The notes under the pieces are model-generated. The model ran no database searches, was not told the DNA's origin, and worked only from the letters and a program-made list of their open reading frames with translations. Of a DNA stretch of 64,000 bases, positions 12,510 to 54,021 are shown piece after piece. Origin of the DNA: Ruditapes philippinarum (Eukaryota); assembly GCF_026571515.1 (NCBI RefSeq), contig NW_026861528.1:1-64000 (forward strand), written 5' to 3'. Positions within the stretch are counted from its first letter, which is position 1; every line of letters starts with the position of its first letter. Both the position numbers and the translations under genes were made by a program.

Positions 12510-14060
12510 ATACTTTATAAATGATATCGTCGAAAATTTAAACACGGACATCGAAGGAATATTTACTCTAGACGAGCTAAAACTGTTCATTTAACTATTT
12601 GCCGATGATTCGGTACTTTTTGCAAACACTCAAAATGCACTTCAAGATTTACTAAACAAACTAGAAGCATATTGTGATACTTGGGGCCTAAAAATAAACA
12701 CCGACAAAACAAAAGTAATGATTTTCGAAAGGGGCCGTCATACACAACATAATTTTATTTTATGTGAACAACAATTAGATGTTGTTAAATCCTTCAAATA
12801 CTTAGGAACACACCTATTTAAAAATGGTTCTTGGTTCAGAACGCAAAGCAGGATAGCACAGTACGCATCATATGCTTTACACAACTTGTTCATTATTTTC
12901 AACCAAATTGAATTAACCAATAAAGATAAATGTAATCTGTTCGATAGCCTAGTTAGATCAGTCCTAAATTATAATGCACCAATATGGGGAAATCACGAAT
13001 CAAAAGCTATTGAGTTGATACATTGTAAATTTTTACGTAAGGTGCTTGGTGTAAAAAAATCTACAAATCTAGAAGGGCTGTATGGTGAGGTTGGAAGAGT
13101 ACCTATGAAAATATATAGAAAACTATTGATGATTAAATACTGGATTAAAATATTGACATCTTCCAATGTATTAATAAGAAAGGTTTATGATATGTTGTCA
13201 AATGATGCTAATCAAAATATTACATATAACAACATGAATTGGGCTTATCAGATAAAACGTATTCTAGAGGAAATAGGATTAGCTGACATATGGATTAATC
13301 AAACTAATATAGTCATCCCTTATTATTTCATCAAACAGAGAATCCTTGATATTTATAAACAATCTTGGTACACTAATATCAACAACTCTAACAGATTATC
13401 TTCATACTGTCTATTTAAACATACTTTTTATCTTGAAAAATATCTAGAATGTATAGATGAAAGAAAATATCAAATAGCATTATCTAAATTTAGATTGTCT
13501 TCTCATCAACTAGCTATCGAAACTGGAAGATACACAAATGTCGATCGACAACTTCGAATTTGCCAAGAATGTAATATGCGCATGATTGAAAATGAGTATC
13601 ATTTTTTATTAGTATGCCCGAAATATAGAGAACTAAGAACCAAATATTTTAAACCATATTATTGTAGATGGCCATCAATCCAAAAGTTCATAACCCTTCT
13701 TTCATGTGAATTTTCAAAAAGTATTACCAATGTTGCTAAATTCATATATTCTGCCTTTCAACTAAGAAATACCAATAACAATGTTTAAATACACTGGCGA
13801 TTTCTTTAGTATTTTATACTATCATACTATATAATGATCAAAGAAACGCAGTTTTTAATAGTTAATTTTTATTTACTGATCTAGTCACAGTTGCAGAAAA
13901 TTTGTATTGTTTTTTTTGAAAATTGACTGAATGTACATGTTATCAATATACTTATCCTTTTTGAATTGATCATGTTCTTCTGTTAAAAATTTCATGTCTG
14001 TACTTCTTGCATTGTAAATGGCTATGTATGTATGTAAACACATATTATGCTAATAAACTA
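12510..14060 (+). mobile_element. 5'-truncated non-LTR retrotransposon (RTE-X-like): RT C-terminal part, CCHC domain and 3' UTR
   Basis: LFADD at ~12595, in frame with ORF 12718-13788. C-terminal LSKFRLSSHQLAIETGRY...CQEC...HFLLVC motif; AATAAA at ~14052. Confidence 0.85.
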
Positions 14061-25885: not shown

Positions 25886-28111
25886 ATATCAGTTATAGTT
25901 ATATTGTATTTTGTATGGAAGTCAAAATACTGCTTTGTTTACATTTTTGAAATTTTCTTACAGATAGTTTCACATTAAGTACTATTTTCGACATGTTACA
26001 CGCGTCTAACATGCCCTAAAACCAATATTTAAACATTTTAAAACTCAAGGTTGCCCTTTTTAAAAGATGCAAGAATAAATTCGTCTCTGAGGCATAATTT
26101 ATCTTTAAAGAAAAAACATTATGCCCATCCAAGGATATACAGTAAGTGAACAGTTGCAATAATTCCTTTTAATTCTATAGGTTATTTCGCTTTAACGACA
26201 AATAACTCATGTGACCAAAGGTAATATCCATATATAGAGATGTGGGCATTATAGATATGCAAAAATGCAAGAAAGAGAGGTATAAGAATACGTTCATGTA
26301 TTATGTTCAGGATAACAAGAGGTCCAAGATATCACTAGATCGTTCTACTGACCCATCGAACTAATCCAAGCAATTACCTAGACAAGCATTCTGACCAAGT
26401 TTCATGACAGGTGAGTCAAAAATGTGACCACTATGTGTTAACAATGATGTTCCATATTTGAACAGTTTTACCTAGTTTTTGACCCCAGGTGACCCATATT
26501 CAAACTTGGCCTAGGAATCATCAAAACATATTTTCAGGCAAATTTTCAGGATATTTGGGAAATATGAACGATATTTTACTCTTGTGAGCAAAGGTAATAT
26601 TTATAAATATCCTTGGAAATGTGCCTACTATGTTCAAATTATGAAAAGAGTGGAACAGTCCTTTTATACTTATGATTAAGATGTATGTTATATCCTGAAC
26701 AATTTTCAATATTAACAGTTGGTAATTCACCATTATAATAGTCTATTATGTAATATATATATACATGTAATCCATTCAGCTCAACATTACAATAAAACAA
26801 GGGAACATTGTTGAAAAATACGCCCGTCACATACGCTTTTGACAGAGTAATCATGAAAATGATTTGTGTTTCAAAACCCCAAAATGATGACTAAATGGTC
26901 CAATTCACATTTTCATATTTTTTTATCTGAACTTTGGTCCATATGTAATGACCTTGACAATGGTCTCATGGACCTAAATATTGCATGCGACACTCCGTCA
27001 TACAATGGTGAACATTTGTACCAAGCAATATTAAAATCCCTCTATATATGTAGAAGATTTGCTCCGGACAAGCGATTTTTAATGTCCTTTACGTGTGAGC
27101 TTGACGTTTGACCTAGAGAACCTAGCGCGAGACCAGCTTCTTATTGTGGTGAGTATTTCTATGATTTTCATTAAATATCCTTCATGTGTGTAGGCTATAT
27201 ATTCCGGACGAAATCTCTATATTAAATCATCTTTAGTGACCTTGACCTTGCAATATTAAGCTGAGTTACATGTTTCACGTACGTAGTCATGAAATGACAA
27301 TTTGTGTTTCAATCCCTCAGTAAATGATGACTTAATGGTCCCAGTTCACATTTTTATCTGAAATTTGTATCCTTTGTGTGACCTTGGCCTTGGTCGCAGG
27401 GACCTGATTTTAGCATACGATGCTCATCATTACAACTGTGAACATTTGTTCTTAGATATATTGAAATGCCTCTATGCATTTAAGAGTTATGTTCTAGGAC
27501 AAACGTCTGTCAATGAACTCTTAGTGTGACTTTTATCTTTAACCTAGAAATCTGCGCGCGAAGTAGCTTTTCATAGTGGTAAACATTTCTATGAAGTTTC
27601 ATTAAAATTCCTTCATGTGTATAGAAGATATTCCCCGGAAAATATTGGACGCCGCGCGTCCACCCGCCCGCCAAAGGAGTTCGTTTTTCAAATGGACCTA
27701 AGGTCACTTTAACATCTACAGGCATGTAACCACACGCTGATACGACAATAGGGACTCTTATTCACATATGACTGTTTATTAGCTCAACATGTTTTTTCAA
27801 CTTTTTAAAGGATTAAAAAGGTTGCACGGACGGAAATAGTGTTTACAAAAGTTATATAGACTTATTTACCATTGATCCGGTATTTGGTATAATAAAAACT
27901 AAAAAAAATCTGATGATTTAGAGATAACTAAGAACAATAAATTTAAACTAGTCTCGTTAAGGCCAAGTAATCATACCGTTTGTTCACAGACAAGCTATCT
28001 TTTCAACTAATCTCTTATGTTTGAGGAGTTGTATTAAATGTTTATATGTTATTAAAGAGATCCTGAAGAAGTTAATAATAACCGAAACACGCGATGCTTA
28101 ACAACTATCAT

Positions 28112-31100
28112 AATAGGCATAGACATCGGTTACTTGAAGTTATTTTTGTTAATGTATGCTGATGTTATTGTAATATTTGCTTCTTCAAAAGACGAATTAC
28201 AGGATAATCTTAATATTTTGCATAAGTATTGTAATCGTTGGAAATTATGTCTTAATAAGGCTAAAACAAAAGTAATTGTTTTCAGGAAAGGGGGCCGCCT
28301 GCCACAAAATCTTAACTTTTATTATGATGGATATCCTTTAGAAATAGTTAACAAATTTTCATATCTAGGTATTGTTTTTACGACAGGTGGTTCTTTTAGT
28401 GAGACTCATAAAACTTTATCCGGTCAAGCACAGAAAGCGATTTTTAGGTTAAGAATGTATCTGTACAAATACACTAATATTACAATTGAACACACTTTAG
28501 AATTTTTTGATAAAATATTTAAACCGATTTTTTTTTGTACAGTTCGGAGGTATGGGGTTTCACTAAAGCTCCACAAATAGAAAGAATTCATTCTTTATTC
28601 TATAAATCTATTCTTTATGTTAAAACCTCTACTCAGAATGATTTTATCTATGGTGAACTTGGTAGATCTTTATGCACAGCGTATTTTTAGAATAATTAAA
28701 TATTGGTTAAAAGTTACAAGTAGTATCGAACGAAAATATATCAAATTGATTTACATGCAAATGTTAAGTGATATAGATAAAAAACCAAGGGTAATTAACT
28801 GGGCATCTCAAGTCAGAGACGTTTTAGGAAATTTAGGATTTTTCGAAAATTGGCTAACGCAGGGTGTTGGTAACCAAACATTGTTTTTATCTAAGCTAAA
28901 ACAAAGAATTTCAGATGTTTTTATTCAAGAATGGACAAGTCGTATAAATTTATTATCAAGAGCAGGATTTTATAGAGTATTTGCAAAATTTGAATACAGC
29001 TTTTATCTAAAAAATGTTAACATAAGTAAATATTTTACAGCTTTAACCAGATTAAGACTGTCAGCTCATCATTTAAGTGTAGAAACTGGCAGAACATTTC
29101 CTTTAAGCATGTCAAAAATTAGAGGACGAATTCCACCTATTGTTTGAATGTAAATTGTATAATTCTATTAGGGAGTGATATATCAACCAATATTACGTAA
29201 TAAACCCAAATATGTATAAAACTGCAGAACTTTTTTAACTCTCATTCAGTACAAATTGTAAGAAATTTAGCAATGTTTGTCTATAAAGGTTCCGGGATTA
29301 GAAAATAATCTACATTGCAATCTTAAAAAGTAATAAATATTTATATACTGTATAATTCTAAAGTTCCTTTCTGAACTTTCATACGTTCTTCTTTACATGT
29401 AAAAACATTTTCCTATTTCCAAACTTTACCCAGCAGGCACTTGACGTTGTTTCAACGTTGAAACAACGTTGAAATATGGTCGTGACGTTGTTCAACCAAT
29501 ATTCAACTATGGACGACCATACGGATATATTGCCAATGTATATACAACGTTGATTCAACGTTGTTTATGGTCGAAGTTTTACATTTAGTTTAATCATTAT
29601 ATAAACTTTTATACCACTAATTTTGTGATATTATTCCTTTATTGAATTAGTCTGTAAGTGATTTTTTTCAGGAAAATTTGCGTTACAATCTTTTTCCGTA
29701 TATTCAAAATTAGCGCTTAAACAAATAAAGTTGGAAATAATTTTTCACTTCCTATTAACGCTTTAAATATTTGTTAATATGTTTTGTTGTTTGTTGTTTT
29801 ATTTTCTAGTTCTTTATGAATAATATTAATTAATAAATTGATATTAGTCAAAACCCCGTTTATAAAATAACGCTGGCCAGGGGAAGTAATTGTTGCGGTC
29901 TATGATTTTGTTTGTTGTCTATGATTATCGTTCGTGCATATGGTGGCGCTGTTTGGAAAATTTGAAAACAACACGATTGGCAATTTATTTGGATTTCGAA
30001 GGTATTACCGTTATGTTTTACTTTAGTTTACTGATTATTTTCTAAAATATTATTATTTATTCTTTAAATTCTACTTTAATTTACTTTATGAAATAAATGA
30101 GAGATATAAACACATGAATGAGTTGATTTGACACGTTTTCGCGACCTAATTGAATGATTTGGGTTCGGAAGGCCTTATAAGAAGTTATTGATGTCATTGA
30201 CAATTTATGATTTTACAAATCTTGTCTTTCTTTAATTTATTTTTCATATTATTAAACATTTGTCTGTACTATATCCTATTTAGAATTTAATCAATTTTAA
30301 AATTGAAACCTATAAAGTAGTTCGGCCCACTTAATTTACGTCCCAAAACGATTCGTCAATATATATAACTATGTTTATATTTTATTGATAGTATAATACA
30401 GTGTTAATTAGTTTGAAAAAAATACATTATAGTGATATAGATAAGTTAAATAACAAATTTGAGTGTTAAACTTTAAAGTTTAATAGTCGTAAATTTAATA
30501 ATAAATCTATTTCTATTTTATTATATATTATTTTATATTCTAGATCCTGGTCCTGGCTGAAATTTAGAGTATTGCAGCTGTAGCCTGTATACCATACATT
30601 CAACACGAAAGGGACTGTCAGGTTTGTTAAATTGAAATTTATTCTTATTAATTTATATATTTGAATTTCTTTACAATACAAAGTATAAATTTTTCAACTA
30701 CTGGAAATTTATCTTGTCTTAAAATATATTTCTATCGGAATATTCCTGTAACATTATTAATATAAAATTTACATGTTTGTTGATTTCAGGATGCTGCACA
30801 AAATGGTCTTAGCTAGAGCCTAGAATGTTAATTTCTTGGGAATATGCTGCAAGGAACTGACGGGGAGCAGTTTTTCTTACAAATCATAGGTGAGACTTTT
30901 AAATTATATATAAATAGCTTCTTTTTAAAAAGTTTTTGTTGTCCTATATACAGTATTTGCTGTCAATATCAAACTTAGCTATGTTTCAATTTCTATGCTG
31001 TTTTATGATGTAAATCTTAGAGAAAAGCATTTTAAGATAAAAACAAATCACTAAGTTGAGTAATTATATGTATAATTTGAGGTTGACCTAGTCACTTTTA

Positions 31101-34782: not shown

Positions 34783-37700
34783 AAGTAAGTAATAGTTACC
34801 GTACGAGGAATAGGTCTGCATAGTGTTTACAGACACGGGTGGCGATTTGAAGACCGAGAGAGCGTAGCGGTCGAGGTTTTTAAAAGGCAACCGGGTCTGT
34901 AAATACTATGCAGACCTATTCCGAGTGCGGTAACTATCTTACCTACATGCTCTTTTGTTTTTCTATCCATACATCAGTTTTTAGCTCAGTATTTATTAAT
35001 ATTACTTACAAGAAACATATTACTTATGTATTTTATCCTGTTTAAGAAAGCATTCTAAAGCCAAGCAAAGATACCATCCGCTACGCTCTTGTAATTCATT
35101 CGTTCACAAATCAGGTGTTATTTGAATATTCTCGTGATTCTCGTGGGGTTTCATTAGGTAATGTACTTGTTGAGTTGAGTCACAGAAAATGAAAACAGAA
35201 CTTGTCGAGTAGGGAAAGGTAAGATCATTATTTTGATATATGAATACATAACATATCAATAAAATAAACAAATACTGAGGAAGATAAAAAATATTTTCTA
35301 ATCATAAAAAACGGAACACTTTATCTTTATACATAATAAATGTCCTGGTAAATAGATGATCAGGCTATTTCTTATATAATTAAAATATACTTTTTTCAAA
35401 AGAAAGTAAAAGACGGGGTTCTATAACTAAATATTAGTAATACATGTAGTTACACCGTTATGTAAGTTGGGTTTTGTTGTTGTTGTTTTTTATGATGGCT
35501 GATTTTAAATGTTCTTAGAATTTCATCCATGTTTGGAAGAATTTTCTTTAGGTGTATTCTTAATTAGCATCATCCGTTATAAGACCGCATGTAAGCACGA
35601 GGTCAAGAATGGAAGCGAAAGTCGTATTCTTGGTACTGGTATACAAAATCTAAATTGTGATGTAAAAATAACTAAAAAATGAGAAAAACGATCTTATACT
35701 TAAGATGAACTATACTCGCACTGAAAGCAATATTTTGGGAAAGAAAGATGCAGACATTGACTTTGATTCGATATGCACCAGTAATATAATCGTCGTATAT
35801 ATCCTATAAATGCAGAATTGTTAAAATAATGCAGAATTGTGCAAATTTAGACATAGTTGTGGAAATAAATACCGAAAACTTGTATCTTATGAAGCTATAT
35901 AGTTCGGCAAATGTGTTAGGTATACCGAAAAGCAAACTTTAAAGAAAGGCTTAATGTGCGTCGTTATACGCCAGAACAGTAGCCAGTTCGTTTTTCTCAC
36001 AAATAATCTGGAATATAAGTTATGAGGGTCCTTACAGTCGTATGCGCTAATTTATTTCGATTAATCTTTAAAATATATATCGACCCTTTTTCCTTTTCAA
36101 AATTGCCATTACCCCCCCCCCCCCCTACAATTCAGCGTTATTTTACGGTGAATATTGTGTAGTGTAATGCACGAGTTTCTCGACTTCACATATTTTCTAT
36201 TGTATAGAGAACAATAGAACAATAACCGGTCGGTATCTATTTGCAGACCTGTTAACCGGTTGGTAAGTGATTTACTAGACCGCTTTTAACAAAGGAGCCG
36301 GTATGGAACGCCATAGCTGCCTTATATAAACACTTCTAAAGTGGTCATGTCCTTTTAACAGATAGTGCTGTGGTTCTGATAAAAGGTTATGTGGTTTTGA
36401 TAAATGGTGATGTCGTGGTGATAGATGGTCCTGTAGTTTAAATAAATGGTCCTGTGGTTTTTAAAAATGGTTATGTCGTTTTGAAAGATTGTGCTGTAGT
36501 TTAAATAAATGGTGTTGTGGATTTAATAAGTGGTGCTGTGGTTTTGATAAATGGTTATGTCGTTTTGACAGATGGTGCTGTAGTTAAAATAAATGGTGCT
36601 GTGGATTTAATAAGTGGTGCTGTGGTTTTTTAATATGGTTATGTCGTTTTGACAGATGGTGCTGTAGTTTGAATAAATGCTGTTGTGGATTTAATAAGTG
36701 GTGCTGTGGTTTTGATAAATGGTTATGTCGTTTTGACAGATGGTGCTGTAGTTTAAATAAAAGGTGCTGTTGTTTTGATAAATGGTAATGTAAGTATGTA
36801 TATGGCGCTGTTGCTTTGATACATGGTGCTGCAGTAATGATAAATGGTGATGTCGTTTTGATATATGGTAGAGTCACTTTGGTACCTGGTAGTGTCATTT
36901 TATATACGGTGTTGTTGCTTTGATAACTGGTGCTGTAATTTTCATAGATGGTGCTGTTGTTTTGATAAATAGTGCTGTGGTAATGATAAATGGTAATGTA
37001 AGTATGTATATGGCGCTGTTGCTTTGATACATGGTGCTGTGGTAATGATAAATGGTGATGTCGTTTTGATATATGGTGGTGTCACTTTGGTACCTGGTAA
37101 TGTCATTTTATATATGATGCTGTTATTTTTATAAATGGTGCTGTAATTTTGCTATATGTTGATGTTGTTTTAATAAATGGTTATACTATTTTGATATATG
37201 GTGATGTTCTATTTATAAATGACGATACTATTTTAATGTATGGTGATGTTCTTTTTATAAATGGTTATACTATTCTGATGTACGATGATGTTCTTTTTAT
37301 AAATGGTTATACTATTTTGCTATGTGGTGATGTTCTTTTTATACATGGTGATACTATTTTGATGTATGGTTCTGTTATTTTTTATTACGATGATGATGAT
37401 CTATTTATAGATGACCTGTTTGTTTACTGGAACATTTTGATCGGTTATTTTAAATTATGGAGACCTTTGTTTTTCACCAACTTTTATACACTCTAATCTG
37501 AGTTTCATCATATCTTGACTGTTATTTATTCTAAAGTATTTCATTTCCTGCATAGATAACTTGCAGACAAAATCAGGCATGATCTTTTCATATTCAAAAA
37601 ATGTCCACAAGTTAAAGGTTTTTTTTAAATTGCTTCCATTGTTTTCATCAGTTAAACATTTCAATTTTAATTTTAATTTATTAATCTCAGACATTAAACT

Positions 37701-39275
37701 CTTTCCTTCATGAGCATATTGTGAAAAAATGGCCGTTTTCATTGAAAAGCCTCCTGTTACAAGTTCAACTGCTATGGAACTATGAAAAATGCTTTGATAC
37801 TGATGAAAATTGGCACAAGTGTTTACTGGACAATAGCCTGTGTCTTAAATTTCCTGTAAAATTGGCAACAGGGGAACGTCTCAAAATTGCCAAAAATCAC
37901 TATTTTGCATTGGTTTTTCTTTCCATCAAAACAATCTGAGTTCAAAGTGCTACAACTTCTCAATTGATTGAGATGGAGCAAAAGGCTTTTCAGCGTTGAT
38001 TACACGTTACCTTACGATCGACCTAAGGCTATTTTAGCCTGTCACATGTCCAAAATTTTCTTGGCGATGAGGGCGACTGTTGCCTACTTCAACCCCCCCC
38101 CAAAAAAAAACACACTAGAGGGCACATCCCCTTGAAGTACCATTTTGATGGGGTCGGCGCCGAAAAAATGGTCATTTTTTTAACAACATTTCTCAAACGA
38201 AAAACAGTGTCTAGGGTGTAATTAGGGCATTTTTTCACTGTTTAATGCCTCAAAAAGGGGAGGGGGTCTACAAGCCGTCAAAACACGTCTATATGAGGTA
38301 AAGGGTTAAAGGAGGTTACGCCATATTTTTCTCAGAAATAAGTTAATGACCATCTCCACAGTTCAGAAAGACATCACCATGTACAAAAATCACAGTACCA
38401 TGTATAAAATGACAACACTATATACCAAAACAGTATAACCATATACCAAACGGCATAACAACATTTCAAAACGACATTATCATTTATCAAAAGCACAGAA
38501 CTATTGATTAAAACCACCTCACCATTTATCAAATCCATAGCACGGTCTATTGAAACGACATAACCATTTATCAAAATTACAGTACCATATATAAATACCA
38601 CAGGACCATCTTACAAAACGACATAACCATTTATCAAAATAACTGCACCATTTATAACAACCATTGCATCAACTAAAAGAACGACCTAATCATTTATCAA
38701 ATCCACAGCACCATCTTACAAAACGACATAACCATTTATCAAAATTACAGCACCATCTATAATAACCATAGCATCAACTAAAATAACGACCTAACCATTT
38801 ATAAAATCGACAGCACCATCTAACAAATCGACATAACCATTTATCAAAATTACAGCACCATCTATAACAACCACAGCACCATCTAACAAAACGACATAAC
38901 CATTTATCAAAATTACAGCGCCATCTAACAAATCGACATAACCATTTATCAAAATTACAGCACTATCTATAACAACCACAGCACCATTTAACAAAACGAC
39001 ATAACCATTTATCAAAATTACAGCACCATCTTACAAAACGAGATAACCATTTTTCAAATTCACAGCACCGTCTTTTAACATGACTGCAACATATATCTAA
39101 ATTACATCACCATCTATCTGAACGACATCACCATATATGAAAAAAACATCACCATCTATCAAAACCATAGCACCATCTATAGAAACGACATCATCATTTA
39201 TCCAAAGGACATTACGACTTGATAAGAGTAAATATAAGGCAGCCATGGCGTTCCATAAGCCGGTAGGTAATTACG
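34783..39275. mobile_element. Hairpin-ended (Crypton-like) element hosting the IS3EU-like insertion
   Basis: ~145-bp terminal stem-loop 34792-34936 (tagttaccg...cggtaacta, loop gagcgtagcggtcgag). Related gcagacc/ggtaag motifs at 36225-36300. Right boundary is inferred. Confidence 0.5.
36302..39257. mobile_element. IS3EU-like non-autonomous foldback element with inverted 21-bp arrays
   Basis: TIR TATGGAACGCCAT(A/G)GCTGCCTTATAT and 6-bp TSD AGCCGG (36296-36301 / 39258-39263). TAY..RTA ends with a 6-bp TSD fit IS3EU. Arrays ~36355-37430 and ~38375-39210 are in opposite orientation. Confidence 0.8.
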
Positions 39276-42030: not shown

Positions 42031-42341
42031 CGATATTACACTAGTGTAATAACACCTTGACGTGACGTCATTTGCGCTATATAGAAACATAGCGTTAAAG
42101 CGCGCTAATGTTAGCATTACACTATAGGCGCATCATTGAAAAATTACTCATTTTTACAGTTTTTTGTTCTTATTTTATATATGTGATAAATAGAATATTA
42201 AATTCGTGTAGATTCAATACTAAATTTATTAAACTCGTTGAATAAAACAATATTATGCTCGCCAGAGGCTAGCATAATATGATTTTATTCAACTCGTTTA
42301 ATAAATTTAGTATTAAACTACACTCATTCAATATCCTCTAT
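42030..42341. mobile_element. Hairpin-ended (Crypton-like) fragment
   Basis: ~150-bp stem-loop 42191-42340 ending aatatcctcta, the same terminus as at ~15560. Confidence 0.55.
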
Positions 42342-43230
42342 ATCTGCAATGACGGTATACTTATATAAAGCTTGTTGTATGATTTATTTTACATTTGTTT
42401 TTATTCATTTGATTCAGGCAGTAATTTAATACCATGTAGTACATTTTACAATAATATATTAAATCCTTGTTTATTTACAGTATAATTTATACCATGTATA
42501 GACAATAACTTGCATGATTTTTCTACCCTGGAACGAAACATGGTCCCTTATTATCTTCTTCACTTGAACTTTTTCTTTTCACCATATGGTACTGTAGTGT
42601 TGCATATTGAATAGACCTCTTTACTTAGATAAACACTTCTTTCCAAAATATTGAAATTCATCAGTATTAACATAATGAATTATCATTAATAAACTTGTCG
42701 AATCTAAATTATAGATAAACTGTGTTTTCTGTCTCTATAAAAAGTCTTGTCTATTTCAAGAATGTTTCGATAAAGTGCATTGCTTGGTAATTTGTATAGT
42801 AAGGGAAACTGTAAGGTTAAAAGACCCGGGTGTGAAATGGGAAGTAAGACATTACCTGTCAATAGCTCAAAATTAATGATGTTAAAACGTTCCCAATATA
42901 TTTTTGAAGGAAGCAAAGATTAAAATAAATATTGGCTTAAAGAAATAAATCAGGAGAATTTATAATAAATTCGACATAATGCAACTTAAGGAAAGGGTGT
43001 GCAGGTGCTGTTGGTTGTAACGCCGCAACAACTACGCCTGTTAACATGTATCTGAATATGAACTATCGTAACATTGTATAAAATGTTAAGTTTGGTAAAC
43101 TGAAGTAAAAGGAAAACCATTTAACGGAATTTTTACTCAAATTATGTTTTACTTACATTGTTTATGCATTGTGTAATTTAATCTGGTTCCCAGCGTACTT
43201 CTGCAAGAGTACGTCTGGCGTGGCCCAAAA

Positions 43231-46200
43231 ATGGCGACCTCCAGTGTAAGTACAACGGATAGGAAAAAGTATAAATGTTTGGACCATTGGCTGAAATTAC
43301 AAAATAAAAGTTGTCTTATAAGCCTGAAACTGTAGCTCAGCAGTGATTTTGTCATAGATTTATTAATTTTTTGAGCAATTGCATTTTGATTCACTGTTAT
43401 AGTGTTCGGATGATGCGAATGTAATGCCAATTTCGGATACTAAACCAAACTATATACGCTTGTAGATCTATCATAAAAATATAGTGAGAACAACTTTCTA
43501 CGGTATTTAAAACTTATAGATACATTGTGTCCTAAACTTGGCAACAATGAACTGGATGGTATCCAGTGATACCCCTGTTTTATACAGATAATACTTCATA
43601 CTGGAGACATGACAAGTGCATTATAATACAGTCTGATTTAGCCAACACTGTCTGCAAGTGCATCTTATCAGTAATGTTAACCAGTATGAAGGGGGACCAA
43701 GAAGCTTGGGCAGTTTTGTTCATTTATACTAATATTTATGAAAGTTATGTTTTGACATCTGCTGGTAGTATAAGATCCAAGTACATGTATAACAACATAG
43801 ATACCGTATTTTTCATTGAACGTTGGATAGAGCTCCTATCCTAACTTTAAAACCAGCACAACAAACTCAACTTCTAAAATGTTGACAGGTCAGGTGAAAA
43901 TTGTTTCGTTTACATATTGTATACAATTAACTTTAAAGGGACTCGCTTATGTTTTTGTAACTTTAAATGAAATGAAGTGTGGCGAATCATTGGGATTGTT
44001 AAACCCATGTTTTAAATTATTTGCCACCTTTTGTTTGCATACAAAATACATTTTGTACAATAATTGTGTTTTTTCTGCTATTTCGATATCATGGAGTAAG
44101 ATAATGAATAAAATTCAGTGTTTTCAGATGCATTACTGTGAAAACTCATTTTTGGTTCCAAAACATGAGGGAGTCCCTTTTAAAGAGTTTCTGTCCATAA
44201 AACCATTATGCACCAGTCAATTGTAACCAAGGGAACCTAGATAAGGCCTTTTCCCTGCTATATTTTACACGAAGAAAAAACACCGCATTCACTCGGCACT
44301 GCAGGGCCACCTGAAAGGTAAAATACACGGCCCTTTCCCCCCGATATACCCCGGACCTGGGGGGGGGGAGGGGCGTGGTTACAATTGACTGGTGCATTAG
44401 TCAAACACAACTTTTAATGTAAATGTGTAAATTTAGTATTTTTTATTTTTTGAGCTTCTTGCTTTTAAATTTAAATTCATTCTTTCATATGTCTGTAGGC
44501 GTGTAGCATTAACATCATTTGACCTTCAATTATTTCAGGAAAGAAGAATTGCAGATGCAATAACAAATTATAATATACATGTGGGAGCCAAGATCTCAAC
44601 TCTGAAAGAAAATCAGAGAAGTGCTGTAAAATATTTAGTGAGGGCAAGGACTGCATCTGCTCCCTTCCCACTGGTTATGGCAAATCACTGATATATGAAT
44701 TACTGCCTTTCCTTGACACTGGGTGTCTAGTTGTTGTAGTAGTTCCTCTAAATGCAATTCTAAACCAGCAGATGGAAAAGTTAGGTGATTTAGCTATGTC
44801 CCTTTGCCCTGGGAAAGTTGACTTCAATAAACTTAAGACTGGCAAATATAGTTACCTTTTTTGCCACCCTGAACAAATTCTAGACAATAAAGCTCTTAAT
44901 GAGGTTTTTCGCACAGAGGGACTCAGTGGAAGGAAAATTTATCTTGTGGTAGATGAGGCCCATTGCATACTGGAGTGGGGAGAGGAGTTTCGTCCGGACT
45001 TCAAACGATTGTTTCAATTAAGATCACTATGTAAATGCCAAGTACTGGCTTTGTCTGCAACAGTTACAGATGCTGGTAAAAAATGTATTTGTTCAAGTCT
45101 TCTTATGAAAAATGTTGAGATAATAAGTGAAAGTCCGGCCAAAGACAATATCAGTCTTACAGTGAAAAGACGACCAAGTCCTACTGCAAGTGGAAACAGT
45201 TCTACAACACCCTACGATTATATTTTTCATCCTGTTATAACAAAGTTGAAGCATGAATTACAAGATTTTGAGATCACCATCATTTATTGTAAATCCATGC
45301 AGTGGATAGGTTATGGCTACGAGACAGCCAGAAGAATCCTTGGCACGGACTTCTACGCAGGTGATAGCAAACTTGAGCATGCTCGAGTGGTGATGTTTCA
45401 CTCTTCTATGGAAAAAGAATCTGGCCAGGTTTGTATTTGGGTTTTAACAGTTTATTCATTTCAAAATATATACTTGTTTAGGACAGACTTGAATACCATT
45501 GTGGTTTTATGTCTTATTTCACTAAAACGGCTTGTACAATACATAAAAATAAAGTAATGATCATTTCAGATTATCAATGTTTATTAAAACAAAATAATTT
45601 TTTTTAACAGCAACTACATTGATGTTGTTTTAAGCTTACAATTATAACTTCTATTAATATAAATGTGTAATACCAGTAAATAACATCCTTGCCATTCTTA
45701 TAATATACAATACAGATTTTTGGATTGGTATGCAGTATGGATTAGGTACACGTTTTTCAAACTGATCCGATCTACAATCTAAACAATTAATCTTTTCATC
45801 AAACACAAAGTTTGTACAATTCTATTTCAATAAATATCTTCAAATTTTTATCAAGCTTTTTGACCACATAAAGTATCCACTGATGATCCTGTATAAACAA
45901 AATCATGTACCTTGTTACAGCTGAAGAACATGATACTGACATCACTTCAAAAACCAGATGCAGAATGTCGGATAAGGCTCATTATTTCATCTGTTGCATT
46001 AGGAATGGGGGCAGACTTGAAAAACGTTAAAAGGATAATACATGCAGGACCACCAACTAGTTTAGAAAGTAAGTTTAATGTACATTTAAATAAAAAACAT
46101 ATACCTTCCCACATGTTTTCACCATGAATTGTAGATGTAGAAATACGTTTAAGCTAGTTAACTTTATTTTTCGTGTTAAAGCTGCACTCTCACAGATATA

Positions 46201-47332
46201 TTGTTTCGACAACTTTTTAATTTTTTGTCTTTGAATTAGCCAATGTTTGCATAAATATCTGTAAACAAGTGAAATGTGATAGCTAACAAAAGATCAGATC
46301 ACAGTTTCCACATTTTACTTTCAAAATATATTTAACGCTTTAATGCTGCACTCTCACATATTGAACGGTTTAGGACATAAAACATTAATTTTCGAACGGA
46401 AATATAAAAATCTGCAATCTGATATTTTGTAAGCAATCTTTAATCATTGTTTTGCAGATATCTAAGACAAAAAAATAAATAAATGTAAAAACGGTATATC
46501 TTTTAGTGTGCAGCTTTAAAAAATGAGTTTTGGGCATAAAAAACAACAGTACATATGAAAACCTGTAATCGGATCTTTTGTCAGCAGTGTTATAACAATG
46601 GTTTCTAGACATTAATGCAAAAACTGGCTGATTCTAAGACCAAAAAAAGATTTAAAAACGGTATTATCAGGTAAATATCTGCGAGTGCCCCTTTAAGTAA
46701 ATTTACAAAATATTCTTTATACTTCTGGTACACTCACAGCCAAGTTGTAATCTTTCTTACTAATTATGCCATTTTAATTTTCGTTAAAAACTACAATCAA
46801 AATATAATGGAGTCCTTGCATAGTTAGTTATTTTCTATGTCCCAAACAGAAAAGCAACATTACAACAACTCTGTAACAAACATCTTCATTTGTTGCCTTT
46901 TATAAAAAATCAGATAATGTGTTTGTTTTGATTATAAAACATGTGGCACTTGTGATTCTATAACCACTCTGAACACCACATGGAACAACATAATCAGAGT
47001 TCATTGAATACATAATACTTTAATATAGTGCTTTTAATATGTGCATCTTAACTGTTCTTTTGTTTTCAGCATATATTCAAGAGATTGGTCGTGCTGGACG
47101 AACAGGGTCTGTGGCAGAAGCAGTTCTCTACTTCAATAATTCTGACATATCAGGTCAATGTATGAGAAAGGATATGCAAGATTACTGTAGAAACAATGAA
47201 AAGTGTCGCAGGGATATCATCAATGATCATTTTGGCTTCCAAACCAAGGAAAAACCAACAATCTGCTGCAATTTTTGTGACTCTCAACTGTGTATTGAAT
47301 GGGATTTTTCTAATTTAGCAATAAATAAGTGA
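43231..47332 (+). CDS. RecQ-like SF2 helicase of the transposon; exons 43231-43245 (putative), 44539-45428, 45921-46068, 47070-47332; one frameshift ~44630
   Basis: Q motif LKENQ, Walker A LPTGYGKS, DEAH, WGEEFRP, LSAT, ALGMG, QEIGRAGR and the RecQ Zn-binding CRR...CCNFC. Intron phases 0/0/1 are consistent. Confidence 0.9.
43937..44179. mobile_element. Kolobok-like MITE in helicase intron 1
   Basis: TTAA-AGGGACTC...GAGTCCCT-TTTAA. Confidence 0.65.
44209..44396. mobile_element. MITE with 21-bp TIR and TTA TSD (PIF/Harbinger-like)
   Basis: TGCACCAGTCAATTGTAACCA / TGGTTACAATTGACTGGTGCA. Confidence 0.75.
46176..46696. mobile_element. Nested Kolobok-like MITEs in helicase intron 3
   Basis: ttaaagctgcactctcac starts (~46176, ~46340) and ends gtgtgcagctttaa (~46519) and gagtgcccctttaa (~46696). 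Confidence 0.6.
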
Positions 47333-47595
47333 AAAATCTCAATTAGGTTCTTCAGCACAGGAACAGATTTTGATGCACAAATAAAAGTTTAACAAAGTGT
47401 TCTTGTAAAAGATTTTTTTTAAATTACTGAAACATTACTTTCTAACCAAGTGTTCATTGTGTCATGCATAATAAAATGTAAATGCTCATGTACAGTACAC
47501 AATACATCATCATATTTTAATTACATATTATGTTTAACTGTACTAAAATTATGATGTGTTGCTCAATTACAGTTAGTTACTGTATCAATTATTGT

Positions 47596-49321
47596 TCAAA
47601 GTTCATAATGTAGCAGCATTTTGTGATGCAGAATCCATTTCAATATATCAGCCATATACAATTTCTTAATAGGATTTTTTGGTACTTTTTTCAGAGATTC
47701 AGACTGACGACCACACACTTCCATGAATGGTTTTATTTGTCTCAGGTCTCTGATAATTTGTTTTTCATCCTCGAATGAAGATAGTTTTTTGTGTTTTGTG
47801 AGCACGCTGTACAACCCCAGTTTTTTTGTCAAAGTTGTTTGATATTTCCTCCATCCCAAAGAAAGCACTACTTCTTTTTACCAATGATTTATCAGTCACA
47901 TTTGATCCCATTGACCGTAAATGTCCTTTGGTCAATCTTACAATATGTTCCATTTGAAGATCTGCAAGAATGATAGTTCTACCAGTGTTAACAAACAGTC
48001 CATAAATGCTTTCATTTGCTGTTTTTTCACTCAAGAGGGCAAATTGCTGACATAACAGTCTTAAAATCTCAAGAGCATATTTTGACTTATTCTTATGGCC
48101 TTTCAACACCAGCATGATATACTTCATGTGACAGAGCAAACGAATCCGACTTGGTGATTTCACAATGTCACATAGTTCGAGAAAAATGAGTCCAAGTTCC
48201 AATACAACTTTACTATATGACAATACAGCGTCAGTTCCATTAACATCCACATCTTCACTTGATATGTGCCGCCTGCTTTCAGATATTATGTTTTAAACAA
48301 GTGGTTGTACAAAAGTCGTCATCCAATGCTTTATTTCATTGTTTGTCATATTTTTGTGGTCTGGGAGGTTTTCTGGGGCTGTGTCAGTGTTCTTCAAATC
48401 AAAATACTGACATGTTGCTTCGACAATGTACGCCCTTATGAATGAAACTGCTAGGTCTCGACAGCTATCATAATGATTTTTGACGTCTTTACCTTCAGCA
48501 TGTTTTCGCAAAAGTCTTACTTTCTGTGAGTAAAGTGTGAATGGCTCTGTACAGTCCGCTTTGTAAAGTATGTCAAAGAATGTTGCTAAAACAGTCATTT
48601 GAACATGGAACAGCTCAAATGTTATTGGAGATAGATTTTCAAACCTCTCGGATGCAGTCAGGGCTGCTGCTCTTAGTCTTTTTGCACCAGAAAACCTTTC
48701 TCTAGTGAGCTGGTCACCCCCTATGTGAATTTGAGGAACTTGGAGTCCAGAACCTTGATATAAGGTCTCACCTAAATCTTGGTATGTGTCCAAAATATCT
48801 ACAACATCAGCATATTTCTGTTCATTTTTATGCTGTATTTGAAGGGGTATGACTGTGTTTTTCAGTTTCATTTTCAAAGGTGTTCCCCCTTGAATTTCAT
48901 TACTTACAGCTGATTTGGCAAAATTTAGCCATGGAAAAAAGTCTGTTAATACCCTTGAAACAAGAATGCACATATCACTTGTTATCACTTTCCAGTCATT
49001 ATCATGCATAATGAATTGCTCGGCTGGAAGCTGCTCAAGGTTGCACTGGGGTATTGTGTCTGAACAGTCATTGAATGAAACATTTTGAACAATGGCAGCA
49101 GATCCAAACCAATGTTCCATATGGCCAGCTTTACCTGTACTTTTTCTCTCGTTCGTGACTCCAATATTGAAGTTAATATTGTCTCCAACTATTCGAAATT
49201 TCTTGCCCTCTTGTATGGAATTGATCAGCTCAGTGTTAAAGCTGCCTGATATGGCTGACATAGTCTCCAACATGCCAGAATGGCTAAGTGATATACCCAG
49301 AGGCTGTAGCCGGTCATACAC
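47596..49321 (-). pseudogene. Academ-type DDE transposase catalytic exon (DUF6589-like) with one in-frame stop (48293-48295) and one frameshift (~47795)
   Basis: Motifs VGDNINF, GGDQLTRER, FELFH and DLQMEH. Splice acceptor at 49322-49323. ORFs 48293-49321 and 47765-48250 share a frame. Confidence 0.85.
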
Positions 49322-50349
49322 CTGTTGGATAGAGAAAACATATAAAATAGATAGTGTGTGTGTTGAGGATTACACCATATTACATCTCCTTACATTGAAG
49401 GTCAGTCTTTTTGGTTCAGAACAAGTACTAATTTAAGTTCACTGCAAAAACGTACAAGCCTATATTTAGTATTTATTTGTACAGGTAATACTTATTTTTT
49501 ACATTTCTAAGGAGCACCAACTGTCATCAGAAAATATGCCCCACCTAAATGTACGACAACAAGTTTGGTGATAGGTGGTTGTATGTTAAATGCTACAATG
49601 GACACTGCAAAGACAGTTTCAATGGTCCTTTCTCTTGAAGGACTGATGCTTAAAAATTGGTTATGAAATATAACATAACAGTGATTTATAGTGAAACTTT
49701 TTGTAAATTAAATTAAATAATTAATGACTCCTGGCTGCTTTAATATCAAAATCATATTCAATTATAAACATAAACATGACATAAAGAGACCTATTGAAGA
49801 CTTTGAATAGAAAAAAGCCCTGGTCTGTCACATTTACCCAAAATAGGTTGTTTCTTTGACGGTGATATCCTGTGGTCGAACTTCATTAACTGTTCAAAGT
49901 GAAGAGAAGAACCAGCAGGTGAACAGGAAAACATCAGCTAGAACTTGGAACGTAACTGCTTTAGAACATTGAGAAAACGTCAGCTATAACTTGGAACTTA
50001 ACTGTATAACATGAAAAACAAGGGTTTCAACTATAACACAAGCAATTGGATGCTGAACTATATTTAAAGTAACATGCTTCGAAAAACTTCATAAATGTCT
50101 TATGATATTATATACATTTATGTGTGGTGTGCATATTACTGTATCTATTTTAATTTGTATGTTATTTGTCAAGTTCTCATTTATTGTCATATATTGTTTC
50201 CTTTATCAATGGTTACACCTGGAGAATATATACCTCATAGTAATGAAATAGTAAGGTTCATACATTTATGCATGTTTGTATAATATAAGTGCATGGTTTG
50301 TATTCTTAATTCACTATTACGGCATTTAAAGGAATTTTAAATTTTTGTT

Positions 50350-53300
50350 GATTGGCCTTTTTTAAAAGACAAATTCATTATTAAAAGAAAAAAAAACCCT
50401 TTTTAGGCCAAACTTTTTAACTACCGGGCCTTTGCAAAAAATTCTGAAACAGTTTTGGGCCAATGAAACCAAAACCATATACCTTTTGGTGGGGCGTTCA
50501 TTTTCCCCCCTTTTAAAACTGCAAACAACCCTTTTTTTGGACACTGGAAACCAATTCATGGAAACCCTTCATTTCAACCCCATCCCCAAAATTTTACTGT
50601 ACCCACCCCACTGGCCCAACAAAACTCTGTTTCAGCAAAATTTTTCCAAAATTTTTCCATTTTGGAAGGGGCAACCCAATTTTAAAATTTCAGCCAGAAA
50701 ATTTTGCTTGTCTGTCACTTTTCAGCTACAATATTGTCCCAACTGAAAGTTGCTAGCTTTTCATATTGTTTTTTTTTGATTTAAAACACTCCTTCTGGTT
50801 GCACATTCTCTGGCCTTCCATTTCTACGTCATATAGCACCAAGGCACTTTCAATTCCTCTGCTAGAGACGAGCTCATTAAATCCTCTGGCAATTTGTTGA
50901 GGACTGCCTCTACCTGTTGCAAAATAAGTAACCACCATTACAGTTCTTTCCACAGTAAGACAACTTGAACAGCTGATTTCCATCAATGCCTGTAGTCATG
51001 CAAGATTTCATTCGTAATAACAATTTTTAATACCTAAAAACTTGTTTTATTAGCCCCAATCTTTCAACAGTTTTAAAAGGGAAATCTGATCTGGAATGAA
51101 TTAAAGCTGAAGCTCTGCCTAACTCCATATAATAAGTGTATAAAGAATAATTATTGGTTTTTCTTTTTTTAACTTACAAAGCAACTCCACCAAATGAGCC
51201 TTTTCACCGTCCTTGAGCTCAGCATAATGACGAAAACGTCTTAAAGCAGCCTTGTGAATAGACTCTGCACCCTTGCCAGCTTTTTTCTGGAGTAAGACAA
51301 AAATCAAGTTGGATTGTCTTGGAAAAAACTTGATTTCTTGTAACAAGCAGAATACTTGACAACATCAGTCATTGGAAAACCTTGTGCAAAAAACTTGAAA
51401 GAAAAGTGGATTGAATCAAAATAAAAAAAATAATTTTGCATTTATCTAAACAATTGTTTTACTAATGGCACATACATTTAATAGTGACAACCGAAGAATA
51501 TTAATTGCATTTGCAATATTATCTTGCTTTGATCAAGGGCTCTTATTCGGCCATTTGAATTAAGATATACACACAAACATTCAATTTAAAGCCCACATCA
51601 TAACATCATGTGTACATGTATAACATCTAAAATGTTTCTAATTTTTGCTGCTTAGCATGAATTACTATGTATATCTTCAGATATATCAGAAAGTTTTAAT
51701 ATTACAATAAGAATTTACAAAGTATTTTCTATTTAAAAAACAAAATATTTAAACACCTTACAATATTATTTACCTTAAGTTCTTTTTTTGGCTCCAAAAA
51801 TATCCATTCACCTTCCTCATGAAACACTTGACCTGAAACTGAAAAACCACAGAGAATGAGTGTTGGTATATCAAATAACCCGATACCTGACACTCTACAA
51901 ATTGTAGAGTCAACATTAACATTTTTCATATACATTATCTAAGTGTTATCATTTTGGACCAGCAATGTCACACGGGGGCCCCAATTTAACATCCCTCACA
52001 GATTTGCTTGATACATCAGTTCACTTATTGCATTACCCATTCACTGGTGGCCATTACATACCTGTATATGGTTTGGACAATGTTTCAATATTTCATTACC
52101 AACTGTTAACATTCTCAACAATTTACCTGGTAGATATAGGGAGCACTATGTCAGTCTGAGTTCCTTGATCCACTGATTTCACTATTTCTCCTGAAGAGGA
52201 AGGGATCTGTTCAGTGATGTCCAGTCTCTTAAATGCATTTTTGCAGGAACGGCCTGTTAAACAATAAACTCATTTACAAATATGTTTTTTAAAAATGAGT
52301 TACCATGTTCAGAGTATTAAGAAACTATTGTGCTATCTATCAATTTAATACCAGAAATCCACATCCATTACAGTTGTATTACTAAATGTTTTTATAACAT
52401 GTTCAAAGGCTTAACAATGCTGCAGAAATGGTGAATTGTCTATATTAAAGTACAAAATTGTTCATAAAAGCCGAATTTCCAATAACTATCTGTCACCATG
52501 GAAGCAACATGGATAACAGTATGTTCAAAATGTATTCAACCACCTTCATTTGTTCCTATCACAAGTGTGTGTCACATTGCCATTGAATACAGTAATGTAC
52601 ATATTTTTATTTTTAACATTTTTTTTTTATTTTTTATAATTTATTTATTTTGGTCAATATGATGAATATAATTATGTCTTATGAAAAATTATTCCACAAT
52701 TTTTCATGAAAGAAAATTACTATCTTTATTTTATACAATAATTATACTAATTTTTTTTCATGAAAAATTGTGGAATATTTTTTATAAATATGACATTGAA
52801 TCACTATCTTGACCAAAAATATAAATAATAAAAATATAAAAAATATAAAAAAATATAAAAAATAAAAAAAATATATTCAGGCAATATGACGAGCGCCTGT
52901 GGTTAAACTAAACCTGAAATAATTTCTCTTAAAACTCGTAATATGTTTATCTTACCTGTCCTTAGATTCACAGGAAATTTGACATTCATTGCCTCGGCAC
53001 ATTTTGTCCAGTACATAGTATCTGTACCATGTTGCTCATTACATCTTACATACTGGTGAAGGAACTGCTTTTCTTGGATCGACCAAGGGCAATGTCTGGC
53101 CACACGGTCCTGTAATAAAAATTAGTTAGTTTTTTTGTGTTTTTCATTTTTAAATTTAGCATTTATGTTAGGAAAACTATTTCGAAACATCAAATACATA
53201 CCATCTCTCCCATTTTTTTTCTACCTTTAATATATATATTATTTTTTATGTTCTTTAGAAAATAAGTCCAAAATGCTAATAGGATTTTTCAAACAAAGAG

Positions 53301-53570
53301 GTAGATCAATGGTTTGTATTAAAAAGCATACAGTTATACCGGGGTATTTCAGAATATACAAAATCAGAAGTTTACCTCACACAATGATGTGCGTTTAGAC
53401 ACCTGAACTGGAGTTTTGCCTGTTGGTGTGCTGCTCTCTCGTTTCCGTTTGGATTTTGTTGGCGTTTGTTTGAGCTTTGATGGTGACTTCACATATGAGT
53501 GCTCAATACTGTCTCTCACAATTTTTGGCAGACGTTCTTCTGGATCAAACCTCGGATATGTGTGGTCCAT
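50350..53570 (-). CDS. Upstream exons on the transposase strand, including a Myb/SANT domain; exons 53570-53376, 53109-52956, 52253-~51774, then degraded exons ~51395-51175 and ~50989-50350
   Basis: Phase-consistent splicing gives ...PWSIQEKQFLHQYV...YWTKCAEAMNVKFPVNLRT/GRSCKNAFKRL. The later exons are frameshifted. Confidence 0.65.
52575..52890. repeat. AT-rich imperfect palindrome (MITE-like) in an intron
   Basis: attccacaatttttcatgaaa / tttcatgaaaaattgtggaat and ttttggtcaa / ttgaccaaaa. Confidence 0.6.
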
Positions 53571-54021
53571 TGTAAATATTGTTTCCCTGTTTAATGAATA
53601 TTTGTATATATTAATGCCATACTCAGAACACTTAAATCTGACTAGTTACATGTATGTGTATTCAAATCATAAGTAAACACAAACTATGTTCTGAAAAAAA
53701 GGTGAACACACAAAAAAGGTGAATTTTTATTACCAGATTTTACTATCCGAAATACCTATATTCCGTTCATTGTCCGAAACCTATACAACTACGTAAACAT
53801 CCGATTTCCAAACAAACCAAAGCTAACCAACACTACCTAACGATAGGAATCAATACAAATATATAAAAGTGAAATACCTACAGAGTTATAAATAGACGGT
53901 CCACAAAATATGTTTTTACCTTTAAGATAAGGAATGCACAGGAGGCAGCCATTTCCAGCGTGTGCCAGGCCCGATAATGAAATGGTAAGGGCAGGTAACC
54001 CAGGCTATGTGTAATTTACTT

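Follow-up and report, generated by a model that had tools for sequence, protein, structure and literature searches.

Introduction

Transposons of the AcademH group have short terminal inverted repeats starting with TA, and this lineage of Academ DNA transposons was reportedly described by Kojima in 2020. AcademH elements are given target site duplications (TSDs) of 9 or 10 bp (PMC10045372) and Academ elements are said to have expanded in bivalves (PMC10294476). For the P element, cleavage by the transposase is reported at the terminus for the 3′ end and 17 nt further in for the other strand; the resulting tail doubles back and pairs with the non-transferred strand in its 5′ part (PMC7776569), and donor scars hold the two tails, with microhomology or filler at their junction, between the TSDs (PMC2895639; PMC10983969). 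Here we analyse 64,000 nucleotides of the bivalve Ruditapes philippinarum (RefSeq assembly GCF_026571515.1, contig NW_026861528.1, positions 1 to 64,000 of the forward strand; hereafter the window), in which an element of 10,829 bp at 43179–54007 encodes a RecQ-like helicase and a DUF6589 transposase and belongs, almost certainly, to AcademH. The window holds a broken copy of this recently mobile AcademH-type DNA transposon, a new member of the group.

What the present analysis adds to the first-pass annotation of this stretch is a two-part structure of the element ends together with a population of short remnants, both of which bear directly on the role of the helicase. These remnants are probably the scars of a cut staggered by 34–38 nt. 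Indeed, a P-like staggered excision can be read from them because they take the same form as P-element scars, with 34–38 nt in place of 17 nt.

Insertion site and structure of the ends

The insertion site is part of a cluster of tandem duplications that contains pacifastin-like exons. The first-pass annotation had proposed an exact 9-bp TSD and an empty-site check, and both were borne out computationally: the 9-mer TGTGTAATT is identical on both sides of the element, and contig C15858, the empty allele, contains a single TGTGTAATT between both flanks and is 97–98% identical to each of them. Two paralogous repeat units downstream of the insertion site are also empty, and the left flank has three further homologs in forward orientation. 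The element at 43179–54007 is a real, confirmed transposon insertion, whose boundaries and ends are as follows.

43170–43178, + strand: left TSD TGTGTAATT, exact match to the right TSD, present as one copy at the empty allele
43179–43212, + strand: left outer arm, 34 nt, terminal TAATCTGG, with an internal hairpin; the portion retained in remnants and the predicted single-stranded overhang after cleavage
43213–43219, + strand: left inner motif GTCTGGC, directly repeating terminal positions 3–8; remnants stop at its 5′ edge, the putative inner cut site
53964–53970, − strand: right inner motif GCCTGGC, at whose edge the remnants end
53971–54007, − strand: right outer arm, 37 nt, terminal TAGCCTGG; retained in remnants
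54008–54016, + strand: right TSD TGTGTAATT, exact match to the left TSD

The terminal inverted repeats TAATCTGG and TAGCCTGG are short, begin with TA and match at 6 of 8 positions. Four families, among them those called F1, F2 and F3 below, share a common end plan, namely an arm of 34–38 nt, the motif GYCWGGC and an ATG 19–20 nt in. The inner motif stands right behind a whole arm in 29 of 31 long ends, the two exceptions being one truncated arm and one arm split off by an insert. Terminal positions 3–8 match the inner motif at 4–6 of 6 positions, a repeat that was part of the search pattern for long ends, the F1, F2 and F3 ends having first been found without it. Furthermore, the inner boxes of left and right ends resemble each other. 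An ATG with a short exon-like stretch occurs at 53952, after the right inner motif.

The arms contain hairpins, and their duplex energy amounts to −41 to −49 kcal/mol. In a crude, linker-joined folding model, fold-back of the terminal tail on the inner motif costs 1.3–5.5 kcal/mol. Register 3 is the optimum for 7 of the 8 ends, and for 6 of the 8 no more than 1 shuffle in 60 does as well (12/60 for F2R and 5/60 for F3R). Two contigs carry rearranged arms. On C1261 (at 11830), left-arm positions 1–30 are duplicated ahead of a whole F3 element, all within one TSD, an arrangement predicted by a staggered cut but not by a blunt one; on C15531, 137 foreign bases (26054–26190) sit exactly between left arm and inner motif of a copy without a TSD. 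Small indels and duplications are also seen in the arms (window 43196–43212 and other F1/F2 arms) among copies that are otherwise 98–99% identical, a variability expected of a stretch refilled after each jump.

Short remnants capped at the inner motif

The genome contains no fewer than 110 remnants, 47–82 bp long, that consist solely of a left arm and a right arm. An exact 23-mer of the right end is found at 16 places, 4 of them long ends and 12 short remnants, while an 18-mer of the left end gives 16 exact occurrences, of which 2 are long ends and 14 short remnants (with one locus counted twice), and a further 5 at one mismatch. A general arm-to-arm pattern yielded 108 matches of 45–75 nt (100 of them listed) against 0 for the reversed pattern, and 11 matches of 76–82 nt against 4 for the control; neither the 83–106 nt nor the 97–127 nt range gave any. 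The remnant set corresponds to 111 records minus one duplicate locus; C4, the duplicate at C6367, two loci whose right end differs and the 8 matches outside the listing are not part of it. TSDs of 9–11 bp border 85 of the 110 remnants (64 exact, 21 with one mismatch), compared with 5 of 12,210 shuffled flank pairs. TSD length is family-specific: 9 bp in 19 of 19 F3 remnants, whereas F1 has five TSDs of 9 bp and seven of 10 bp.

The extent of the arms was examined in the 96 remnants that could be assigned to the four families. The inner motif is present in no remnant. The right arm never passes it (0/96), and the left arm does so by 1 nt in 6 remnants and by 2 nt in 1, the extra bases being, on inspection, all assignable to the right arm. 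An arm ends exactly on the motif in 34 cases on the left and 27 on the right. When remnants are grouped into junction classes, which are slightly over-split in that an arm duplication is scored as an insertion, 61 of 61 fall within this cap and 27 touch it; 20.4 would be expected within it under uniform breakpoints (log10 P about −33), a null that is crude and in which related ends are not independent. The window's own family contributes 13 remnants in 10 junction classes, 12 of them with a TSD. Exact joins of two full arms occur in three families (L209, 37 + 35 flush; L039 and L049; 17 F2 copies), and junctions show microhomology of 1–4 nt or filler bases.

Five remnants (L039, L208, L119, L118 and L182), some of them near-perfect, have unrelated flanks and no TSD; such remnants possibly reflect the joining of ends from two donor sites, that is, a rearrangement. 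At least two further remnant families, represented by L114, L128, L131, L133, L172, L184, L189, L191 and L226 and by L050, L052 and L053, have no long copy found in the assembly.

Proposed excision mechanism and alternatives

In the mechanism that we propose, the transposase would make two nicks, one at the terminus in the transferred strand and one in the opposite strand immediately 5′ of GYCWGGC. RecQ helicases move 3′-to-5′, and the element helicase, with this polarity, would separate the duplex of the 34–38-bp arm between the nicks; the 41–49 kcal/mol that this separation costs would make it a job for a helicase. Two long 3′ tails would stay at the donor, where end joining would fuse them into a 47–76-bp scar between the old TSDs. 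The tail of the element would fold back, its terminal RYCTGG pairing with the 5′ end of the inner motif in the manner of the P-element tail, and the arm would be refilled by host synthesis after insertion. Handing one strand to each product is the simplest arrangement because new insertions and old sites both keep both arms.

Taken jointly, a 34–38-nt staggered cut and melting of the arm by the element's own helicase form the account towards which we lean. The widest version of it seems to us evenly poised between right and wrong. It would make AcademH transposition a helicase-assisted cut-and-paste with a 34–38-nt staggered transposase cut, the stagger being set by the inner copy of the terminal motif and exceeding twice that of the P element; the RecQ helicase would peel off the arm, the freed 3′ tail would refold, and a three-way junction would rebuild a normal transposon end. 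Each excision would leave a dated 50–75-bp scar, and mis-joined scars without a TSD would mark rearrangements.

Several points weigh against the proposed mechanism. TSDs are missing from 25 of 110 remnants, 14 remnants with no long end of their own family were omitted from the cap test, and, as mentioned before, the null of that test is crude and the terminal/inner repeat was part of the search pattern for long ends. One junction is common to 17 F2 remnants and another to 7 F3 remnants, as a copied tiny mobile element would give; a preferred repair product would explain these shared junctions equally well. The inner box holds an ATG and a splice donor in 10 of 10 ends, so that the start of a gene may be what keeps it conserved. 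A search for sites occupied by a full element in one case and a remnant in another gave none, and no long end shares flanks with a remnant among the listed matches. A replication block at the motif could yield the cap without any stagger. The part of the helicase in arm melting is a prediction. Finally, RNA reads sampled over 42300–52450 (4–6% of two runs) reach a depth of 0–4 on both strands, introns included, with no splice joints.

A first alternative keeps the long staggered cut as real and lets host helicases or the transposase melt the arm, the element helicase acting elsewhere, in target opening, complex disassembly or gap filling. P elements handle 17 nt without a helicase of their own (PMC7776569), the choice of helicase versus nuclease has been linked to TSD length, hence to the target side (PMC10045372), and the link between helicase and arm is a prediction. 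However, 34–38 bp at −41 to −49 kcal/mol exceeds twice the P stagger, and the helicase is constrained in at least two families that leave capped remnants, so that we hold this division of labour to be unlikely.

We are more doubtful about a second scenario, in which the cut falls at or near the termini and gap repair from the sister chromatid recopies the ends, stalls at a hairpin or at transposase bound on the inner motif, and gives way to end joining. In wild-type flies, P-element breaks are mainly repaired by synthesis that aborts and then gives way to end joining (PMC2895639), the arms do contain hairpins, and long copies with internal deletions exist. Nevertheless, this scenario demands a base-exact block at both ends in four families with differing arm sequences; products of 83–127 nt were not found with the arm-to-arm pattern, and the arm duplication on C1261 is not predicted.

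The TSDs bordering most remnants, and the junctions shared by 17 F2 and 7 F3 copies, would also suit tiny non-autonomous elements (MITEs, miniature inverted-repeat transposable elements) of few origins that then spread by themselves. The 61 junction classes argue against this view, as does the recurrence of the same junction types whether or not the F2 right arm has a 10-nt duplication (judged by eye). The remnants also lack the inner motif, although 29 of 31 long ends have it directly behind a whole arm. Moreover, the common classes, namely the full-plus-full join and the one with the longest microhomology (4 nt), are expected repair products, and some near-perfect remnants have unrelated flanks (L039, L208). 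Such an origin of the remnants thus appears improbable. As for a transposase that at times cuts both strands at the inner motifs, excising the inner unit and leaving double-stranded arms, it would account for the cap, for the C15531 insertion and for the likeness of the inner boxes, but it is highly improbable, since no armless element with its own TSD exists among the 31 inner-box matches of the four families, the arm duplication is left unexplained and two separate cutting modes are required.

Helicase gene

The helicase, on the + strand, is convergent with the transposase, on the − strand, and both genes are predicted to be spliced; the convergent pair of spliced RecQ-like helicase and DDE transposase noticed by the first-pass annotation is supported by Pfam matches and exon models alike. 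Four helicase exons have consistent splice phases, as judged from the sequence.

43231–43245, + strand: likely helicase mini-exon 1 (MATSS, GTAAGT donor, phase 0), with splicing predicted from the letters
44539–45428, + strand: helicase exon 2, with Walker A LPTGYGKS, DEAH and SAT; one base missing at 44639
45921–46068, + strand: helicase exon 3 (Helicase_C)
47070–47331, + strand: helicase exon 4, with motif VI QEIGRAGR and the RecQ zinc-binding module

The Pfam matches are DEAD (E=1e-20), Helicase_C (E=0.004) and RecQ_Zn_bind (E=6e-5). The protein, of about 435 aa, terminates after the zinc module, which leaves no space for a winged-helix or HRDC domain. Among PDB sequences, the homolog P0036 matches RecQ 1oyw (E=1e-38) and RECQ1, BLM and WRN best. 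Between F1 and F3, helicase and transposase both retain 54–55% amino-acid identity despite about two thirds of fourfold sites being changed, which indicates that both genes are constrained; from this comparison, the helicase appears to be constrained as strongly as the transposase.

The caution that the helicase could be misannotated as a host RecQ/WRN gene proved justified, since P0046, the helicase of another copy with 98% identity across the aligned part, goes under the database name 'ATP-dependent DNA helicase Q1-like [Ruditapes philippinarum]'. A host-gene origin is ruled out by the empty allele: the gene is absent from the allelic contig and present in other copies, at odds with a host RECQL, WRN or BLM gene. 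Many mollusc 'RecQ-like', 'WRN-like' or 'BLM-like' entries close to the element helicase may likewise be transposon genes, as established for one.

Transposase gene

DUF6589, which we take to be a marker of Academ transposases, has two Pfam matches on the − strand (E=6e-22 and E=1e-13), a positive outcome for the HMMER search named in the first-pass annotation. The gene comprises seven exons; in the copy C7400, exons A–F joined form an open 346-aa frame with GT-AG introns.

53376–53570, − strand: transposase exon A, from the first in-frame ATG
52956–53109, − strand: transposase exon B, likely Myb-like DNA-binding part, 33% identical to a weak Myb match in the homolog P0019
52127–52253, − strand: transposase exon C
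51774–51832, − strand: transposase exon D, with a +1 frameshift in the window copy
51178–51286, − strand: transposase exon E
50483–50913, − strand: transposase exon F, garbled in the assembly, 25 indels relative to C7400
47596–49321, − strand: transposase catalytic exon G (DUF6589), with a TAA at 48293–95 and a +1 at 47797 in the window copy
49183 (D), 48715 (D), 48616 (ExxH) and 47962/47950 (D/E), − strand: catalytic residues in exon G

Exon B has no Pfam match of its own. In an alignment of 121 sequences, the catalytic D, D and E are conserved in 76/78, 96/98 and 79/81 rows, and the ExxH motif is also conserved; all of them are intact in the window. The homolog P0001, 59% identical to the window exon, gave a structure model with a predicted local distance difference test score (pLDDT) of 94.6. 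Hermes (Z 10.6, root-mean-square deviation 7.3, 297 aligned) and the P transposase (6p5a; Z 10.4, root-mean-square deviation 5.4, 359 aligned) are tied on top in comparisons with this model, which has a predicted RNase H DDE fold. Foldseek of the transposase model against the PDB returned no match at E≤0.001, and a transposase profile search of PDB sequences found none. There is no Pfam match to a THAP domain in the window exons or in 10 transposase homologs and no PHD-like Cys pattern in the C7400 exon A–F chain; upstream exon open reading frames were scanned without a Pfam match.

State of the window copy and its relatives

The first-pass annotation called the element complete, with only a few lesions in the core exons. 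The layout is indeed complete, and lesions are few in the helicase (the −1 frameshift at 44639) and in the catalytic exon (the TAA at 48293–95 and the +1 at 47797). The claim does not extend to exon D, with its +1, or to exon F (50913–50483), whose 25 indels fall mostly in homopolymer stretches, and the coding sequence is more broken than had been claimed. Judged by its reading frames, the window copy as assembled would not be functional. The exon F indels look like assembly noise, because contigs of two other individuals depart from the window there; window 50290–50920 is homopolymer-inflated and resembles an unpolished long-read assembly.

Four other copies in the assembly are 94–99% identical over most segments (C13443, 91–95%), and both element ends recur on other copies. 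Each of the four carries deletions or insertions, so that none of the five copies of the window family in the assembly is intact; copies without the window's transposase stop are present in other individuals. The copy C12133 has lost the helicase through an internal deletion (window 43549/48020), which is also found in contigs of two other individuals. A distant relative at C11008:802–6320 has divergent helicase and transposase and an open frame of 1042 aa. Three inverted-repeat elements are nested in the window copy.

43932–44183, no strand given: small inverted-repeat element within intron 1 of the helicase, likewise present in C9582 and C7400
44208–44397, no strand given: small inverted-repeat element with 22-nt perfect arms
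46176–46519, no strand given: inverted-repeat element in helicase intron 3, common to C9582, with distant relatives elsewhere

Surrounding locus

The cluster gives a Pfam match to pacifastin (PF05375, E=2e-8), with six motif matches in 94 kb. These PF05375 exons lie at window 7448 (− strand), 24406 and 60018 and at 70277, 77113 and 84190 of contig C10015, and the tandem units are 72–97% identical. The insertion point is about 0.8 kb into one pacifastin unit, whose exon near 42400 was missed by the motif scan, yet the unit aligns at 96% to that at 70288. Elsewhere in the window are long interspersed nuclear element (LINE) fragments at 12595–13788 and 28056–29147 (RVT_1 matches), an open frame of 448 aa at 930–2276 (− strand) with a 69-bp tandem repeat and no Pfam match, and two arrays of 21-bp period at 36300–39260, inverted to each other.

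Comparison with known systems

The AcademH identity put forward by the first-pass annotation is supported by each feature examined: a RecQ-related superfamily 2 helicase, an Academ-type DDE transposase, TSDs of 9 or 10 bp (in the window, 9 bp), and mobility, to which the multiple copies and the empty site attest. The element also shares a bivalve host with AcademH, and departs from it in a Myb-like N-terminus without a PHD finger. A PHD finger in the transposase is the mark of AcademHP, and no such pattern is present in the C7400 exon A–F chain. AcademX, with a nuclease and a TSD of 3–4 bp, does not correspond to an element with a helicase and a TSD of 9 or 10 bp. Literature searches, including passages of PMC10799480, PMC10045372, PMC10294476, PMC4455052, PMC5751038, PMC9587614 and PMC5199201, yielded no report of Academ footprints or cut sites and no description of ends with outer arm and inner motif or of capped remnants; the original AcademH paper with its supplements, or Repbase and Dfam, may already show short derivatives.

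Compared with host RecQ proteins (E. coli RecQ, RECQL, BLM and WRN), the core motifs and the zinc module are alike, whereas the element helicase, at about 435 aa, stops after the zinc module and resides within a mobile element with an empty allele. KolobokH and Kolobok-1_CCri (PMC9587614) are likewise DDE transposons with a RecQ helicase, but of a different superfamily, for which no footprint data were found. As the remnants provide base-exact predicted cut sites and a defined substrate, the doubly nicked 34–38-bp arm, the role of the helicase in Academ and Kolobok could be tested by one excision assay.

The P element is like the present one in its long staggered cut, inferred here, in scars that hold both tails with microhomology or filler between TSDs, in a tail that folds back, here by prediction, to pair with the other strand at its 5′ end, and in an RNase H fold with an insertion domain (6p5a), as modelled for a homolog. 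If the proposed mechanism is true, past excisions can be counted in bivalve genomes from scars that would be classed as MITEs in repeat libraries, and long staggered ends are not unique to P elements. The differences are nonetheless clear: a stagger of 34–38 nt instead of 17 nt, a TSD of 9 or 10 bp instead of 8 bp, no match to the THAP domain of the P superfamily, two arms that are not inverted copies beyond about 8 bp, and a helicase of its own.

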